In this document: piece after piece, positions 49,622 to 64,000 of the stretch
Numbering within the stretch: the stretch's first letter is position 1
How the letters are laid out: each line of letters starts with the position of its first letter
Assembly: GCA_035499655.1 (NCBI GenBank)
Contig: DATJYL010000185.1
Location: 843 to 64,842 of the forward strand
Source of the DNA: Pirellulales bacterium
Lineage (GTDB): Bacteria > Planctomycetota > Planctomycetia > Pirellulales > JADZDJ01
Direction of reading: 5' to 3'
DNA length: 64,000 nt
Translations under genes and position numbers: made by a program
Notes under the pieces: generated by a model
The model's input: the letters and a program-made list of their open reading frames with translations, nothing else
Database searches by the model: none
What the model was told of the DNA's origin: nothing

Positions 49622-49693
49622 TGGGGAATAGTGTAACGGTAGCACGAATGGCTCTGGACCATTTAGTCTAGGTTCAAATCCTAGTTCCCCAGC
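49622..49693 (+). tRNA. tRNA-Gln (anticodon CTG)
   Basis: Manual fold: acceptor UGGGGAA/UUCCCCA (U1-A72, G73 as in E. coli tRNA-Gln), D-arm GUG…CAC, anticodon stem AAUGG/CCAUU with loop CUCUGGA, T-arm CUAGG-UUCAAAU-CCUAG. Confidence 0.8.
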
Positions 49694-54826: not shown

Positions 54827-55525
54827 TTCAAATCCTAGTTCCCCAGCTTTTTGCCATGCAAAACCCACGCTTTGGCGATGCAAATGCCACACAGGGAACT
54901 AGGTTGTTAGCGCAATCACGATTGATTTTGCATAGCATTAGGACACCAATTCACTTGGTCCGATAAGTGGATTGCTTCCGAATTCGCCGTGTCTCATAAC
55001 AACTGCAAAGCGCTGGCAAAATCGAACTCGTTATCAATCGCTACTGTGTGAATCCGGCTTGGACACAATCTGGTAACTTGCTTTTCGGCTGACCGGATTT
55101 CAAATGACAGCTTCCATGTAGGGGCGGATGACATGCGTCATGCGGCAAACTTTAGCAGCCTTCCACAGCTCGTCGCCGGTGGCCAGCTTTTTACGCCAGC
55201 AATCGCGCAGCGCTTCCAGCGCCACATCCAGTCCCACTTGGTTGCGGAATTTGAAGCAGTCGGCCACCGTCTTGGCGGGAGAGTAAATCTTCACCTGCAC
55301 GCCGTCAAGCGGATGGACCTGGATGCCGAACCGCTGCGCTGCATCAGCATATCGCACAATGCGCAGGGGCGGATACTCAATTTTCGGCGGACGAGATTTT
55401 TTGGGAATCGCCAGCCAGATTTCATGCGGGTTTTCTGTGGTCAGGCCGTGAAAGGCCAGCGCTGACAGCAGGCAGACCACAGCCTGCGGCGTGCGTTTGG
55501 CAACTTCGGCGAGCTGCGCGAAGCG
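54827..55525. repeat. Direct repeat copy B (begins with tRNA-Gln 3' 21 nt fragment ttcaaatcctagttccccag at 54827-54847)
   Basis: See copy A. The tRNA 3'-end fragment here is not preceded by the rest of a tRNA. Confidence 0.75.
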
Positions 55526-55726
55526 GCCTGATTTGGCCTTCGCCAGGCGATACAGTCCGCGTCCGGGTCGTTCCAGGATGCCTTCCACATAGAGCTTGTT
55601 CAGGTACTCGGGGGCAATCCCCAGAGGTTCCAGGTCCCGGGGGCGCAGAAGCCCATTTTTACGGGCGAGCGTGAGAATTTGCTCCCGTTTTTGCCCGGCA
55701 TCGTTAGTTAGATTATGTCGTACCAT
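55100..55726 (-). CDS. AbiEi-like (type IV TA antitoxin / COG5340-type) wHTH regulator, intact copy
   Basis: 208 aa. …ILERPGRGLYRLAKA…VVCLLSALAFHGLTTENPHEIWLAIPKKSRPPKIEYPPLRIVRYAD… resembles the AbiEi antitoxin family. No AbiEii nucleotidyltransferase partner adjacent. Confidence 0.5.
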   Translation of the reverse strand: MVRHNLTNDAGQKREQILTLARKNGLLRPRDLEPLGIAPEYLNKLYVEGILERPGRGLYRLAKAKSGRFAQLAEVAKRTPQAVVCLLSALAFHGLTTENPHEIWLAIPKKSRPPKIEYPPLRIVRYADAAQRFGIQVHPLDGVQVKIYSPAKTVADCFKFRNQVGLDVALEALRDCWRKKLATGDELWKAAKVCRMTHVIRPYMEAVI

Positions 55727-60235: not shown

Positions 60236-61348
60236 CTACAACAAATTGACCACGCGGTCGGCAAGGCCCTTTTCGCCGAGCAGGACGTTCAGCTTCGACG
60301 TGGCAGCAATCTTCTCCAGTACTTCCAGCTCGCGCAAACGCATGAGCGTCGGGTTGTCCTGGAGCAGCTTCGCCGTGTTGACCTGGCTGCGCATGGCGGC
60401 CGTTTCCTCGCGACGGACGATGAGGTTGGCTTCGGCAGCCTTCTTGGCCTCCGTCACCTTGTTCATCAGGTCTTTCATCTCGCCCGGCAGGATGATGTCG
60501 CGGATGCCGACCGAAATCAGTTCCAGACCAAGCGACTTGGCGCGCGGGCGGACGATTTCAGCCAGTTCATTAGCCACCGCATCCTTATCGGTCAAGAACG
60601 AATCGAGTTCGCGGGCACCGACCACGGCGCGGAGCGCTAACTGCACCTCGCGGTACAGCGCCTGCCGCACGTCGTCGGCCACGCTGACGGCCTGCCGGGC
60701 ATCGACCACGCGGTAGGTCACGACAGCGTTCATCCGCAGCGTCACCTTATCGGCGGTCATGATGTCCTGGCCAGCCACGTCAAACATCGCCTCGCGCATA
60801 TCTTCCTGAACAAACTTGACCGTGGCCAAGTTCTTCCAAAAAGCGTAACGACCCGGCGGCAACGTTTCGACGAAATCGCCGTCGACGAACAGCACGCCCA
60901 CATGGTGTGGCTCAACCGTGCCAATTTCCAGCACGCGGTCGACCGCAGTCGAGCGCATGATGACGCGCAAGTCCGTGTGTACGAAACGCACCTTGCGGGC
61001 ATCGATCACTTCGACCTTCACGGCGCGCAGTGTCGTCCAGTAGGCATACAAGCCCGGCGGCAGGATGTGGCTGAAGCGACCTTCGATCCACACCAAGGCC
61101 CGCTCATAATCCTTCAGGTCCAAAACCACCGCGCGGTCCTGCAGCGCACCCGACTTGACGATCACATCGAGCTTCTCGTGCACGAGCCACGGCTCACGCA
61201 TCGAGACAACCTCGACGCGGACCTTGCTCCACGGGTCGAACAGCCAGTGGCGACCGCGCGCCAGCAGGCCCTTGAACTCCCGGTTGCGGAAGTACAGACC
61301 GATTTCGTAGCTGCGGATATTAACATACTTAAGAATTGGAGTGTTCAT
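60236..61348 (-). CDS. SPFH/band-7 (slipin-like) domain protein without obvious N-terminal TM
   Basis: Central band-7 region …DVAGQDIMTADKVTLRMNAVVTYRVVD… followed by a coiled coil (…EAKKAAEANLIVRREETAAMRSQ…). Confidence 0.6.
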   Translation of the reverse strand: MNTPILKYVNIRSYEIGLYFRNREFKGLLARGRHWLFDPWSKVRVEVVSMREPWLVHEKLDVIVKSGALQDRAVVLDLKDYERALVWIEGRFSHILPPGLYAYWTTLRAVKVEVIDARKVRFVHTDLRVIMRSTAVDRVLEIGTVEPHHVGVLFVDGDFVETLPPGRYAFWKNLATVKFVQEDMREAMFDVAGQDIMTADKVTLRMNAVVTYRVVDARQAVSVADDVRQALYREVQLALRAVVGARELDSFLTDKDAVANELAEIVRPRAKSLGLELISVGIRDIILPGEMKDLMNKVTEAKKAAEANLIVRREETAAMRSQVNTAKLLQDNPTLMRLRELEVLEKIAATSKLNVLLGEKGLADRVVNLL

Positions 61349-61805
61349 AGTTCACCGCCTTTCATTCTTGCTGCTGTACCGACTGACAATATCAATGGAT
61401 GCGTCGTTCGCCTGATTTCAAAAAACCCGCTGGCGACGGAGCGAATTGCCGATCACACGGCTCGATGCGGAGTGCGGTTAAGTCGGAATTGATTTCAGCT
61501 CAGAGCGTAGGGCACGATTTACTGTCGAGCGCTTGCACGCTCGAATCAGCAAACCCGCGTCTGCGATCCTCTGCTAACGTCAATTACCGGCGGTATCCGC
61601 GCACTACAGGGCACGAGCACGTGCTGCTGATAGCCAGCGGCTCACTTCGGCAACCAGGTCACCCAACTGCCGACCCGAAGATCAGCCCATCGAAATTCCT
61701 CGTCACCTGATGAACACACCGAACTGCCAGCCGATCAAACAACCGTCCGACGCCGTTGGGCCTTGGTGGTGGACGCTTTCACGCCCGGAGCGAGTTTGCA
61801 CTCGC

Positions 61806-61878
61806 GGTTTGGTACGGGAGTCGAACCCGCGACAGCCAGATTCATGGTCTGGTGCTCTAACCTCTGAGCTAACCAAGT
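61806..61878 (-). tRNA. tRNA-like gene, Met/Ile2-like body but atypical (anticodon loop CCAUGAA with C33; two acceptor-stem mismatches). Possible pseudo-tRNA
   Basis: Manual fold of reverse complement: D-arm UAGCUCAGAGGUUAGAGCA, anticodon stem CCAGA/UCUGG, T-arm GCGGG-UUCGACU-CCCGU. Confidence 0.4.
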
Positions 61879-62010
61879 GGTAGTCGCACACAGCCTTCGT
61901 TAGAACCCATTCGCGGAACACGTTTCGCCAATCGTTTTCGCGAGACGAATCGCGCCGCTGGCCTAGCTGCGCCAACTTTGCTTGTAATTCCTTTCTGTCT
62001 TCGTTGATGA

Positions 62011-62082
62011 AGACGCCGGTGGGAGTCGAACCCACTTCGAACTGCTTTGCAGGCAGTTGCCGTGCCGTCTGGCTCCAGCGTC
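62011..62082 (-). tRNA. tRNA-Cys (anticodon GCA)
   Basis: Acceptor GACGCUG/CGGCGUC, discriminator U73 (Cys identity), anticodon stem ACUGC/GCAGU with loop CUGCAAA, T-arm GUGGG-UUCGACU-CCCAC. Confidence 0.75.
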
Positions 62083-62129
62083 AAAAGTTGCCCGCCGAAG
62101 CGAGCAACCAAATTCAGTCTCTAAAAGTA

Positions 62130-62306
62130 GTGATTACGATTAGCGCCGTCGAAACGAGCCTTTCTTCAGGCAGCATTTTTTGAATCGCTTGCCGCTACCA
62201 CAGGGACACAAGTCATTTCGACCGAGCTTCTCTTCGAGCAGCTTCGTGTTGTGTACGATGCGGACACCGCGTTTGACTTTTTGCTCGGACGGGAAACCTT
62301 TCCGTC
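62130..62306 (-). CDS. Small SEC-C motif protein (58 aa; [58 protein letters not shown]), missing from ORF track
   Basis: Manual translation. C-terminal [15 protein letters not shown] = SEC-C zinc-binding motif (as in SecA C-terminus/YchJ). Confidence 0.55.
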
Positions 62307-62404
62307 GTTTGCTCATCCGTTCGAAAAAAATGGTTGATCGTCAAAATCGTGCCTGTGCATGGGACACCTCCTTAGAAAATCATCCCGAGACAAAGAATCC
62401 GCAG

Positions 62405-62477
62405 TGTCCTCGCCAGGAATCGAACCTGGTCCTCGACCTTCGCGGGGTCGCATGCAAATCCGGCACACCCCGAGGAC
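62405..62477 (-). tRNA. tRNA-like gene, probable Arg-type (anticodon loop CCGCGAA: reads GCG if canonical; C at position 33)
   Basis: Perfect acceptor GUCCUCG/CGAGGAC, anticodon stem CGACC/GGUCG, T-arm CCAGG-UUCGAUU-CCUGG, 73 nt. Confidence 0.5.
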
Positions 62478-62482
62478 AATCT

Positions 62483-62947
62483 TTATTTGATTCTCAACGC
62501 TTCAACTTGCTGAAGTGCGTCACTAGGCAATTCGTTGCCATAAATTACGGATAAAATAGCTGGAAGATAAATATCGAATGCTTCTCGCGTCATTCCAATC
62601 AAGCGATCGACAGTTTCATTCTCAAGTCGATCTCCAAGCAAAGTCTCGGCGGTTTCAAACCGCAACTCTGAAGTCTCAAAGTTCATCTCGAATCCGCCAC
62701 AAGGAAGTGCAGAGTTAACAAGACGGATGCTTTCAACCACTCCTGACTGACAACCTTTAGAAACACACAACCGCAATTGGCCTGTTGCCTGGAATTGACC
62801 GACTTCGTTATTAATCCTCGCAAACACACGATAGGAACCGACAATTCCAGGAAAATCCACGCAAATTGCTTGTTGCTCATCGTTGGACCAATGGCCGATT
62901 TGCAATTGCTTCATGCGCGACAGCAGCTTTTCGTACGCAGTGTTCAT
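62483..62947 (-). CDS. Hypothetical 154 aa protein on low-GC DNA between tRNAs (possibly YbjN-like)
   Basis: ORF-track ORF. Region is AT-richer than genome average. No recognizable catalytic motif. Confidence 0.35.
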   Translation of the reverse strand: MNTAYEKLLSRMKQLQIGHWSNDEQQAICVDFPGIVGSYRVFARINNEVGQFQATGQLRLCVSKGCQSGVVESIRLVNSALPCGGFEMNFETSELRFETAETLLGDRLENETVDRLIGMTREAFDIYLPAILSVIYGNELPSDALQQVEALRIK

Positions 62948-62966
62948 AAATATTGCTCCCGTTCAG

Positions 62967-63038
62967 TACCTCGCCGAGGAATTGAACCCCGTCTTGCAGC
63001 TTCGAACGCTGCCGTGCTATCCGTCACACTCGCAAGGC
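62967..63038 (-). tRNA. tRNA-Arg (anticodon TCG)
   Basis: Acceptor GCCUUGC/GCGAGGU (two G-U pairs), anticodon stem GCAGC/GCUGC with loop GUUCGAA, T-arm CGGGG-UUCAAUU-CCUCG. Confidence 0.65.
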
Positions 63039-63053
63039 GCATTCGCTGTGCAG

Positions 63054-63125
63054 TATCCCGACCTGGAGTCGAACCAGGACCTGGACCTTCGGAGAGTCCA
63101 ATGCGATCCGCTACACTATCGGGAT
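63054..63125 (-). tRNA. tRNA-Arg (anticodon CCG)
   Basis: Acceptor AUCCCGA/UCGGGAU, anticodon stem GGACU/GGUCC with loop CUCCGAA, T-arm CCUGG-UUCGACU-CCAGG. Standard numbering fits. Confidence 0.7.
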
Positions 63126-63217
63126 GTCACAGAGCCGACGACTGGATTCGCACCAGCATTGACCGGTTTACGGGACCGGCGCCTTTCTCAATCGAGCCAC
63201 GTCGGCATTTTTTCCAG

Positions 63218-63287
63218 CACGAGCGTGAGGATTCGAACCCCATGTGACGGCTTTGGAGGCCGCTTGCCCTCCCAGGAGCACACTCGT
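63218..63287 (-). tRNA. tRNA-Trp-like (anticodon CCA) with shortened/irregular D-arm (70 nt)
   Basis: Acceptor ACGAGUG/CGCUCGU, anticodon stem GCGGC/GCCGU with loop CUCCAAA, T-arm UGGGG-UUCGAAU-CCUCA. The D-region does not form a canonical 4 bp stem. Confidence 0.45.
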
Positions 63288-63321
63288 GTGAAGCCCAGGA
63301 GCTTTCGCTCCCGGGCTTGGT

Positions 63322-63930
63322 TCACTCTTCCAGCTTGACGTTCCAGTACGCCTCGCTGACGAATTTCGACCAGCTTTCAATGCGCACCGTGTGCCGGGCA
63401 TACATCGGCTTCCACAATGGACGAACCGGCGTATGCCGTAGCTTCAAATTGGACTGCTGCGGTGTGCGGTCGGCCTTGCGCTTGTTGCAAGTCACGCACG
63501 CCAAGACGCAGTTTTCCCAAGTCGAAGTGCCGCCCTGCGACCGCGGCACAACGTGGTCGATCGTCAGCTCGTCGGCGCCTGGTTGTACACCGCAATACTG
63601 GCAGGTCCAATGGTCCCGCTTGAACAGGTTGCGGCGACTGAAGCTCACGGCAGCGCTCGGCAGCCGATCGTAATCGGCCAGCACGATCACCTCCGGCGTC
63701 CGTAGCCGCATTCGAATCGCCTGGATGAACGGATCGCCTTCGCGCACACGCAATTGCGACCAATCAGCCCAGGTGTAGGTCTGGTAGTTTTCTGGGTCGA
63801 CCACACGCGCCGACTCGTTCCACAGCAGCACCAGCGCCCGGCCAACCGTAGCTACGTTCACCGGCTGCCAGTTGCGATTCAGCACCAGCGTCGGACGTTC
63901 GAGTGCCTTGGCAACCATGTTGATCTCCAA
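63322..63930 (-). CDS. HNH endonuclease family protein
   Basis: …CQYCGVQPGADELTIDHVVPRSQGGTSTWENCVLACVTCNKRK… = HNH motif with zinc-ribbon cysteines. Confidence 0.8.
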   Translation of the reverse strand: MEINMVAKALERPTLVLNRNWQPVNVATVGRALVLLWNESARVVDPENYQTYTWADWSQLRVREGDPFIQAIRMRLRTPEVIVLADYDRLPSAAVSFSRRNLFKRDHWTCQYCGVQPGADELTIDHVVPRSQGGTSTWENCVLACVTCNKRKADRTPQQSNLKLRHTPVRPLWKPMYARHTVRIESWSKFVSEAYWNVKLEE

Positions 63931-64000
63931 TCGTGAATATCAAAATAAATTCGAATGCAAGATGACTTAACTACAACAACAACGTTCGCATAATTCCAAC

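Follow-up and report, generated by a model that had tools for sequence, protein, structure and literature searches.

Supernumerary transfer RNA (tRNA) genes gathered in dense L-arrays are spread by horizontal transfer, are listed for the Planctomycetes, and have a conserved HNH endonuclease gene as neighbour (PMC8421152, PMC4758250). The L-array of Anabaena is induced by translational stress (PMC8421152, PMC4758250). The arrays of mycobacteria contain a conserved embedded HNH gene and have been regarded as a putative anti-defence system (PMC5966550, PMC12803027), and the tRNAs of phages may evade anticodon nucleases through changes in the anticodon loop (PMC10264068). The giant RNAs GOLLD and ROOL can adjoin tRNA arrays. 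In this paper, a locus of this kind is analyzed in a stretch of 64,000 nucleotides (nt), hereafter the window, from a Pirellulales bacterium (contig DATJYL010000185.1, positions 843 to 64,842). The region close to the end of the window is probably the 3' tail of an accessory operon of about 40 tRNA genes with an HNH gene, followed by a module that consists of a three-domain RNA of about 550 nt and a slipin gene.

The tRNA array and its complete form in relatives

Seven tRNA-type elements were called by ARAGORN on the minus strand of the window between positions 61806 and 63287 ("His-AUG", Cys-GCA, Arg-GCG, Arg-UCG, Arg-CCG, Thr-CGU, and Trp-CCA). Because these seven calls on one strand fall within 1.5 kilobases (kb), compared with a single call in the other 62.5 kb, the clustering is not a matter of chance. 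The Rfam tRNA model supports 7/7 elements with 19.7-49.9 bits, and the standalone tRNA-Gln of the window reaches 66 bits. A preliminary description of this DNA had reported six minus-strand elements; all six were recovered in place by ARAGORN and Rfam, but a seventh, tRNA-Thr(CGU) at 63132-63206, had been overlooked. Upstream of the HNH gene, just 82 nt remain before the end of the contig, and the window, and with it the preliminary description, covers only the seven-element tail of an array of about 40 members.

The complete array can be seen on near-identical contigs. The tail encodes a 154-amino-acid (aa) protein whose sequence recurs unchanged on three metagenome contigs, namely that of the window and two others, L002 and L003. 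These two share 99.98% identity with one another and 95-96.6% with the window tail. Both extend past the HNH gene and carry 30 more ARAGORN tRNA genes upstream, and the gaps in their array hold Ala-CGC, Tyr-GUA, and an aberrant Met-like CAU element, recognized by Rfam or by inspection. In L003 the full unit comprises about 40 tRNA genes (37 ARAGORN calls plus these 3) in 5.2 kb on one strand and covers all 20 amino acids. The density over L003 1516-6665 is 7.8 genes per kb including the open reading frames (ORFs), and the window contains 7 in 1.48 kb. The HNH gene had been described as following the array; in the direction of transcription it instead precedes the seven elements and follows about 33 more tRNA genes.

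When genomes representative of their species were scanned, 80 loci were obtained, and 81 loci were counted in all. The scanned loci are essentially all from Planctomycetota metagenome-assembled genomes (MAGs) of the Pirellulales, Planctomycetaceae, and Thermoguttaceae, including chromosomes of several megabases (Mb). At least 10 tRNAs are present in 57/81 loci, many of the remaining loci being short contigs, and related loci contain 30-40 tRNAs each. The genes before HNH are ordered Phe, Glu, Pro, Ile, Lys, Ile-UAU, Lys, Thr, Gly, Pro, Asn, Ser, Gly, Gln, Gln, Val, Leu, Leu, Asp, Leu, Tyr, Glu, Leu, Met, Leu, Val, Thr, Ala, Ala, Ser, Arg, and His, and those after HNH are ordered Trp, Thr, Arg, Arg, Arg, and Cys. 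The whole order, with HNH invariably placed between His and Trp, is recognizably kept in at least 57 of the 81 related Planctomycetota loci, the strand is uniform, and the median spacer is 20 nt. The upstream flank of the arrays is not conserved, and the downstream flank is conserved in about half of them.

Conservation of the array tRNAs

The six true tRNAs of the tail, all on the minus strand and all called by ARAGORN, begin with tRNA-Trp(CCA) at 63217..63287 (71 nt, A1-U72, G73, compact D-arm; Rfam 29.7 bits). It is followed by tRNA-Thr(CGU) at 63132..63206 (C33, and G55 in the T-loop UGCGAAU; 42.3 bits), tRNA-Arg(CCG) at 63053..63125 (canonical anticodon loop CUCCGAA; 49.1 bits), tRNA-Arg(UCG) at 62966..63038 (G8 and G32; local match of 25.6 bits), tRNA-Arg(GCG) at 62404..62477 (C33 and G8; local match of 19.7 bits), and tRNA-Cys(GCA) at 62011..62082 (G8 and U73; 49.9 bits), the last true tRNA of the array. 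A canonical elongator has a 7-base-pair (bp) acceptor stem, a 7-nt anticodon loop, U33, U8, and U54-U55-C56. All six tail members form the cloverleaf, and they depart from the consensus at U33 (Thr-CGU and Arg-GCG), U8 (Arg-UCG, Arg-GCG, and Cys), and U55 (Thr-CGU). Two loops with C33 had been claimed in the preliminary description. Three can be counted, namely CCAUGAA in the element at 61806-61878, CCGCGAA in Arg-GCG, and CCCGUAA in Thr-CGU.

Three tail families were examined for covariation in distinct orthologues (Trp, n=46; Cys, n=35; Arg-GCG, n=40). For Trp and Cys, pairing is kept in 97-100% of the sequences at almost all stem positions, the exception being Trp 31:39 (28/46), and the stems of Arg-GCG are paired in 35-40 of 40 at every position. 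The acceptor stem of Trp keeps 7/7 pairs in all 46 orthologues and shows compensatory changes, as at 2:71 (CG 27, GC 17, UA 2). Compensatory changes are also seen in Cys at 29:41 (UA 18, CG 17), with further changes at 27:43 and 50:64. The discriminator is conserved too: 35/35 Cys orthologues have U73, 45/46 Trp orthologues have G73, and Arg-GCG has A73 or G73. The D-arm of Trp, previously described as degenerate, is instead a compact arm with a 4-bp stem and the 6-nt loop CUGGGA, whose stem covaries among loci (GCUC/GAGC, CCUC/GAGG, GCUUG/CAAGC). On this sequence evidence, the tested tRNAs are functional-looking molecules that appear to be under purifying selection. Given the covariation, failure of the consensus in the tail tRNAs is no proof of lost function.

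The departures themselves follow a pattern. U33 is almost invariant in elongator tRNAs (PMC5041475). Among the array tRNAs, C33 is found in Leu-GAG (41/41), Glu-CUC (32/40), Pro-GGG (13/14), Thr-CGU (23/34), and Arg-GCG (8/41), amounting to 16% of 1480 array tRNAs, with counts that are not phylogenetically independent. G8 occurs in 33/38 Cys, 38/41 Arg-GCG, and 30/37 Arg-UCG genes, position 8 of Cys being G or A and never U (0/38); A8 occurs in Thr-GGU (22/22) and G55 in Thr-UGU (28/33). The C33, G8, and G55 departures are therefore fixed per isoacceptor and are not random decay. The earlier proposal that Arg-GCG and Trp are pseudo-tRNAs is at odds with their compensatory changes and conserved discriminators across 40-46 orthologues, and with the isoacceptor-specific nature of C33 and G8. 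Where positions 35 and 36 of the anticodon are both A/U, C33 is found in 2.6%, as opposed to about 20% otherwise (again with counts that are not phylogenetically independent). This distribution suggests that C33 is tolerated where codon-anticodon pairing is strong, and would therefore imply that the array tRNAs still take part in decoding.

Of 1488 array tRNAs, only 0.2% have an encoded CCA, and in 77% the discriminator is followed by C74-U75. The trailers read CUG, CUU, or CUC, and in the window they are found after 63217, 63132, 63053, 62966, and 62404; the C-U trailer may be a processing signal. The standalone tRNA-Gln(CUG) of the window, at 49622-49693 on the plus strand, is canonical (66 bits) and also lacks CCA, with a CUU trailer, so the absence of CCA is a trait of the organism and not of the array. 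The array Gln-CUG is very different in sequence from this canonical Gln-CUG 12 kb away. Outside the arrays, a few canonical tRNAs are found in related loci, among them a long-arm Leu(CAA).

Several observations concern other array members. The array tRNAs Leu(UAA), Leu(UAG), Leu(CAA), and Leu(GAG) are 73-80 nt long with a short, class-I-like variable arm (L003 3076-3408 and 3807-3883; L004-L083), and Leu(CAG) mostly has a long variable arm. The sole CAU tRNA of the array, at about 3737-3806 in L003, is called Met(CAU) in 20 loci, with 69-72 nt. It has G8 in 17/20, a T-loop that is abnormally short or contains G55, and an initiator-like GGG/CCC in the anticodon stem. The L003 copy is called by neither ARAGORN nor the Rfam tRNA model. 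In most arrays the slot 8 gene is Thr-CGU and the post-HNH Thr gene is Thr-UGU; in the window lineage the two anticodons are reversed, with UGU in slot 8 and CGU after HNH (63132-63206 compared with L003 2218-2291). The L003 array contains Arg anticodons GCG, UCG, CCG, and UCU without ACG, and both GAU and UAU for Ile. TRNAs with A34 are absent from most arrays, Arg-ACG being found in a few (L018, L026, and L028). Because most arrays lack A34 tRNAs and have Ile-UAU, the array set would not need deamination of A34 (TadA), or lysidine (TilS) for AUA.

A large structured RNA with a tRNA-like domain

The interval between tRNA-Cys and the next gene, 662 nt in the window and 576-825 nt elsewhere, is conserved in blocks. 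It contains a predicted structured RNA of about 550 nt on the minus strand (~61983-61415; nhmmer profile and RNAalifold), which lies between tRNA-Cys and the slipin gene, at distances of about 40 nt from the former and about 70 nt from the latter, and is found at full length in 31 loci by the nhmmer profile. RNAalifold predicts 93 pairs in 16 helices from 26 sequences, arranged in three separately closed domains. Pairing is observed in 93.5% of cells, in contrast to 33-46% in controls with slid partners. Changes on both sides are seen in 53 pairs (controls, 19-27) and 239 cells (controls, 42-53). None of 500 shuffles (0/500) reached the observed covariation values, a control that overstates significance, the slid-partner control being the more relevant. 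Indels not divisible by three number 390, as against 63 divisible by three, and all reading frames are closed. A 110-aa ORF at 61703-62035 on the minus strand overlaps tRNA-Cys and the structured RNA and is almost certainly no gene.

In the 5' domain (61888..61972; helices 1-3), an outer helix closes an irregular hairpin whose internal loops are conserved, and 10/19 pairs show compensatory changes. The 3' domain (61425..61761; about 335 nt) comprises helices 8-16 with compensatory changes in 36/58 pairs, and its long-range helices pair 61761-61733 with 61454-61425, 61731-61721 with 61636-61626, and 61624-61586 with 61487-61455. The RNA ends at a terminator-like hairpin with a U-run (61440-61426), and no other site of this type lies on the array strand from 61200 to 64000.

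Between these two domains lies the element at 61806..61878 on the minus strand, named "His-AUG" by ARAGORN and described earlier as Met-like. Orthologues occur in at least 26 loci, 100-230 nt after tRNA-Cys. The D-arm, anticodon stem, and T-arm are conserved, and the body is near-invariant (UAGCUCAG.GG.AGAGCACCAGA-N7-UCUGGCUGUCGCGGGUUCGACUCCCGUACC), yet the 7-nt loop is hypervariable: 26 sequences contain 23 different versions, and identity is 46% in the loop compared with 86% in the body. The acceptor stem has 3-5 bp, of which only a GGU/ACC stub of 3 pairs is conserved. In the window copy, A1·C72 and C2·A71 are mismatched in the acceptor stem, position 33 is C, and ARAGORN reads AUG in the 7-nt loop; the names given to orthologues include His-AUG, Leu-GAG, Stop-UUA, Ile-GAU, Asp-AUC, and Thr-CGU. 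A conserved anticodon and a complete acceptor stem, as expected of a tRNA-Met or tRNA-His, are thus both lacking. The loop CCAUGAA with C33 and the two acceptor mismatches had been correctly noted, but the orthologues rule out the status of a tRNA. Judged from this comparison, the element is a tRNA-like domain inside the structured RNA, and not a Met tRNA, a suppressor, or a decayed tRNA. The plus strand of 61806-61878, with CAU and U33 in a loop UUCAUGG, was rejected as a gene because canonical D- and T-loops are read only on the minus strand.

No Rfam family matched the 671-nt stretch that contains the RNA when it was searched alone at E<=10, and permuted transfer-messenger RNA, RNase P RNA, introns, and riboswitches were discarded as identities for lack of a family match. 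Neither Rfam 15 nor the searchable literature (Planctomycetes large RNA, slipin-linked RNA) yielded a description of it. The large RNA thus appears to be undescribed, and it resembles GOLLD and ROOL in context.

The RNA-slipin module

The RNA is followed by a slipin/SPFH (Band 7) gene at 60236..61348 on the minus strand (370 aa; Pfam Band_7, E=5e-31), whose product is 100% identical to a 'slipin family protein [Pirellulales bacterium]' of NCBI. A slipin gene stands directly after the RNA in 20/22 RNA-positive arrays and follows 0/26 RNA-negative arrays. In four slipin loci picked regardless of HNH or arrays, the RNA is upstream of slipin in 4/4, preceded by 0-3 tRNA genes. The RNA-slipin pair is preceded by at least a few tRNA genes or by the whole array, with 0-3 tRNAs in array-free loci. 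In one locus (L113) two ORFs, one of them on the opposite strand, lie between the RNA and slipin. Because the pair co-occurs in arrays and the RNA is also found upstream of slipin in array-free loci, the RNA and slipin form a conserved chromosomal module of the Pirellulales. The HNH-tRNA array stands before this module in about half of the arrays, the window included. A slipin search of a phage collection gave nothing relevant. The identities of HNH and slipin both fall within 69-82%, a band too narrow for a comparison of their modes of inheritance, with values distorted by insertions in two HNH genes.

The HNH endonuclease

The HNH gene (63322..63918, minus strand, 198 aa) matches Pfam HNH PF01844 over residues 106-151 (E=5e-16). 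It lies between tRNA-His(GUG), beyond the window end, and tRNA-Trp, and the same slot is occupied in the L004-L083 arrays. C106, C109, D121, H122, N136, C141, C144, and N145 are invariant in 26 homologues, so that the His and Asn residues of the motif and its two CxxC zinc pairs are all present. Homologues at 70-95% identity number in the thousands, and phrog_16726 matches the protein nearly over its full length (E=2.6e-37). Matches in the PDB are limited to the HNH domains of IscB and Cas9, and those in PADLOC to generic HNH models such as PtuB and Cas9. The N-terminal ~95 residues gave no annotated domain. An AlphaFold2 model from 26 homologues was too poor to be used (predicted local distance difference test 42, predicted template modelling score 0.31). 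The best plasmid homologue (41% identity) is on pREB6 of Acaryochloris marina (L085, 7989-10379), where it lacks a tRNA array and adjoins a plasmid-borne methionine-tRNA ligase gene.

Other features of the locus

Two small ORFs are interspersed in the tail. The first, at 62483..62947 on the minus strand, encodes the 154-aa protein, which is weakly YbjN-like (Pfam YbjN, E=0.0024, under the family cut-off); homologues with 39-45% identity occupy the same slot in six other loci. The second, at 62140..62316 on the minus strand, encodes a 58-aa SEC-C-motif protein (Pfam SEC-C, E=8e-10), with copies of 82-85% identity in the arrays of four other loci, lying in L017 between Arg-GCG and Cys. Since recurrence in the same slot is limited to 4-6 loci, both are sporadic cargo inside the array. 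Their description as low-GC ORFs holds for the 154-aa ORF (GC 0.449, compared with 0.566 for the window) and is weak for the 58-aa ORF (0.52). PADLOC made no defence-system assignment for the 154-aa ORF or slipin.

A hairpin rich in GC, CCCGGGAGC-GAAA-GCUCCUGGG, separates the stop codon of HNH from tRNA-Trp (63292-63320, minus strand). It has no U-run and may be a processing or stability element; a weak Rfam Transposase-2 match (16 bits) falls on it. Matches to the Rfam group II intron model (Intron_gpII; 64-67 bits) are found inside or at the edge of arrays in L010 (5229-5305) and L013 (14428-14504), and such introns may account for some of the kb-scale gaps between array tRNAs. Some genomes have two HNH-tRNA arrays, as in L018/L026 (CAWDRV010000004.1, 48 kb apart), L015/L042, and L019/L022. 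AbiEi-type antitoxin genes are found near both sides of the array, at 55100-55726 of the window on the minus strand and at L002 1-170 (PADLOC, E=2e-81), and no AbiEii toxin gene was called beside the former. The genes that flank the array are chromosomal in type (AraC, dehydrogenases, slipin, BlaR/BlaI-like, PadR, and an esterase), and no capsid, tail, terminase, or integrase gene is among those called.

Interpretation and alternative explanations

Because no terminator-like site occurs on the array strand before its end (61440-61426), the whole unit, from the upstream tRNA-Phe to the end of the large RNA, could be made as a single precursor transcript. RNase P and RNase Z would cut this precursor, with later addition of CCA, which the genes do not encode. 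Most likely, the array would provide a spare decoding set that differs from the housekeeping tRNAs and might come into use during translational stress or upon depletion of the housekeeping pool by toxins that target tRNAs. A possible function of the HNH enzyme is to maintain or spread the unit. The upstream tRNA and the internal tRNA-like domain may be processing handles for RNase P/Z or a structural elbow, and the large RNA may act with slipin or upon it. A bolder extension, which is possible but would sooner prove wrong than right, is that the RNA is a new class with a co-opted tRNA fold, produced in every case downstream of true tRNAs, that forms a ribonucleoprotein with a cage-forming slipin, maybe storing, shielding, or handing over spare tRNAs, and that the C33 elongators are a working, naturally selected exception to the near-universal U-turn.

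Several points weigh against the reading of an accessory operon joined to an RNA-slipin module. The ~33 upstream tRNA genes lie outside the window and were read from 95-97% identical contigs of other assemblies. HNH homologues occur without arrays in 12/81 loci, on an Acaryochloris plasmid, and on a Tsukamurella plasmid. Co-transcription is argued from the shared strand, the short spacers, and the absence of terminator-like sites, and no sigma-70-like promoter was found upstream of the first array tRNA. A spare or toxin-resistant role is an analogy drawn from cyanobacteria, mycobacteria, and phages (PMC8421152, PMC12803027, PMC10264068). A single direct duplicate of a housekeeping tRNA, Gln-CUG, was found; tRNAs with C33, G8, and G55 might decode poorly; and the covariation counts come from related sequences.

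It can also be proposed that the ~550-nt RNA is not free-standing and is instead a giant cis-regulatory leader of the slipin messenger RNA, similar to an attenuator or riboswitch, in which the long-range closing helix competes with a local hairpin and U-run upstream of the slipin ribosome-binding site. The tight co-occurrence of RNA and slipin on one strand agrees with this, as do the overlap of the terminator-like hairpin and U-run (61440-61426) with the 3' strand of a covarying long-range helix and the GGAGG-type ribosome-binding site that follows. However, the U-run is not conserved elsewhere, where the tails read GTTGCC, GTCTCT, and GCCAAC, and the two ORFs of L113, one on the opposite strand, separate RNA from slipin. 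Three closed domains, a length of ~550 nt, and an internal tRNA-like module go far beyond known leaders, and the same context fits the trans-acting GOLLD and ROOL (PMC12286853). A leader is therefore considered unlikely, though it deserves to be kept in mind. Improbable is the explanation that the aberrant members (C33, G8, G55, and "His-AUG") are decaying pseudogenes or nuclease decoys that are unused in translation. Several members do have low Rfam scores (19.7-29.7 bits), C33 and non-U8 break near-invariant positions (PMC5041475), and a 'sponge' role has been proposed for the operonic tRNAs of Anabaena (PMC8421152). Against this, the stems of Trp, Cys, and Arg-GCG are mostly 90-100% paired, with compensatory changes and conserved discriminators, each isoacceptor keeps its own deviations across 40+ loci, C33 shuns weak, A/U-rich anticodons, as would follow if decoding still matters, and "His-AUG" is accounted for as a domain of the larger RNA.

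A prophage or phage cassette with tRNAs serving phage translation is distinctly improbable, in spite of the frequency of the HNH family in phages with many tRNAs (449 records, phrog_16726, and contigs of jumbo phages at 40-51% identity) and of one 'viral' contig in IMG/VR with the same array and RNA. That contig (L104, the contig of L089) is the one real match among five to a conserved 19-nt motif of the RNA in IMG/VR, the other four being chance matches without tRNAs or a profile match. The flanking called genes are chromosomal and include no capsid, tail, terminase, or integrase, the downstream RNA-slipin module is also found without arrays, and the array is present in Mb-scale chromosomes of many MAGs. 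From the preliminary description, which proposed a phage- or island-borne cassette, an accessory, HNH-linked tRNA cassette of the island, plasmid, or phage type can be retained, but its carriage by a phage cannot, as the flanks lack phage genes. The least probable of these explanations is that the array is the housekeeping tRNA set gathered in one operon. It does cover all 20 amino acids with ~40 anticodons in an order conserved in many genomes. Yet a canonical, higher-scoring Gln(CUG) of very different sequence lies 12 kb off, and canonical tRNAs, including a long-arm Leu(CAA), are found outside arrays in related loci. One genome can contain two arrays (L018 and L026 share a contig), and certain HNH loci have none; the single CAU tRNA has an aberrant T-loop, and many members break near-universal consensus positions. 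Moreover, surveys call such arrays supernumerary (PMC8421152).

The order-wide synteny of the array and its conserved C33, G8, and G55 tRNAs are its notable properties. Fixed C33 in dozens of genomes (Leu-GAG, 41/41) offers a natural data set on how far the U-turn is required, which also bears on protection from anticodon nucleases. For annotation, tRNA finders keep calling the RNA-internal domain a tRNA with a random anticodon (His-AUG, Stop-UUA, Asp-AUC). Because metagenome assemblies tend to break in them, such arrays are under-reported.

Comparison with known systems

A tRNA array unit as defined in 2016 has at least 20 tRNA genes at a density of at least 2 per kb, and the array, as represented by L003 (96.6% identical), exceeds both values. 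Like the L-arrays (Tran et al. 2016; Santamaria-Gomez et al. 2021; the trn operon of Anabaena PCC 7120), it consists of dense tRNA genes on the same strand for nearly all amino acids. In agreement with the L-array definition of Santamaria-Gomez et al. (2021), the genes have one orientation and a co-transcribable spacing and are linked to an HNH-family gene. Known L-arrays come in addition to a dispersed set of housekeeping genes, and their tRNA genes lack CCA; the array here is also CCA-less. It is thus a new member of the known L-array or tRNA array unit kind, for which the Planctomycetes are already listed (PMC4758250, PMC8421152). A Nostoc plasmid provides a close parallel. There, an HNH homologue (34% identity over 84% of the query) is located directly upstream of an array of 21 tRNAs, which shares Leu(CAA) and Leu(UAA) with a short variable arm. 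In contrast to the cyanobacterial array, the gene order here is unrelated, the HNH gene is embedded and not upstream, and C33 is found in 16% of tRNAs compared with 1/21 in the Nostoc array. Unlike scattered L-arrays, the array here is syntenic across the whole order or phylum and adjoins the RNA-slipin module.

The units of Mycobacterium (Morgado & Vicente 2018, PMC5966550; Yano et al. 2026, PMC12803027) likewise contain one embedded HNH gene that encodes a conserved protein, and in the plasmid array of M. avium tRNAs lie on both sides of it. They are redundant with chromosomal tRNAs and are considered a possible anti-defence system or backup set. In that plasmid array no GOLLD was found at the gathering threshold. 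In contrast to the locus here, the Mycobacterium arrays are on plasmids or phages with variable insertion sites, and their tRNAs are canonical, with 45-69 bits. The mycobacterial HNH protein matches only the HNH core of the protein here, ~50% of the query.

The internal domain of the large RNA recalls MALAT1/mascRNA, in which a tRNA-shaped module within a longer transcript has kept the elbow and stems without acting as a decoder. By this analogy (PMC8457004), the tRNA-like module here may plausibly be a handle for RNase P/Z; the MALAT1 case is, however, eukaryotic and nuclear, and without homology to the RNA here. The Rfam mascRNA model gave weak matches to the array tRNAs Cys and Arg-GCG and not to the tRNA-like domain.

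The closest parallels in context are GOLLD and ROOL. GOLLD (RF01998) is a large multi-domain RNA in or beside tRNA arrays (PMC12286853), and in some cases a tRNA is lodged between the 5' and 3' parts of this RNA (PMC12286853; PMC12990946, citing Morgado 2020). ROOL (RF03087) has a mean length of 581 nt and many helices, is found near tRNA clusters, and has no known function (PMC5737381, PMC12286853). The locus here contained neither at the level of covariance models: the 671-nt region gave no GOLLD match at E<=10 and no ROOL match, and in seven related loci none was found at the gathering threshold among the best 150 of 189 matches. Further differences from GOLLD are the length (~550 nt compared with >800), the insert, which from its sequence seems to be a non-chargeable tRNA-like domain with a free loop, and the chromosomal, slipin-tied setting. 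For ROOL, neither a tRNA-like insert nor a conserved neighbouring protein gene has been reported, and the prophage context is absent here. The likeness lies elsewhere. In a way reminiscent of GOLLD, the RNA here stands at the end of a tRNA array, with its tRNA-like domain set between a 5' domain and a larger, conserved 3' domain; the size is similar to that of ROOL; and the location in or beside a tRNA cluster, with an optional embedded tRNA, is the one given for these RNAs (PMC12286853, PMC12990946). The RNA would be the third large RNA in a tRNA-array context, and the almost perfect co-occurrence of a slipin/SPFH gene provides a concrete partner to test. Were it to work as a ribonucleoprotein with slipin, it would parallel GOLLD and ROOL while having a protein partner that can be named.

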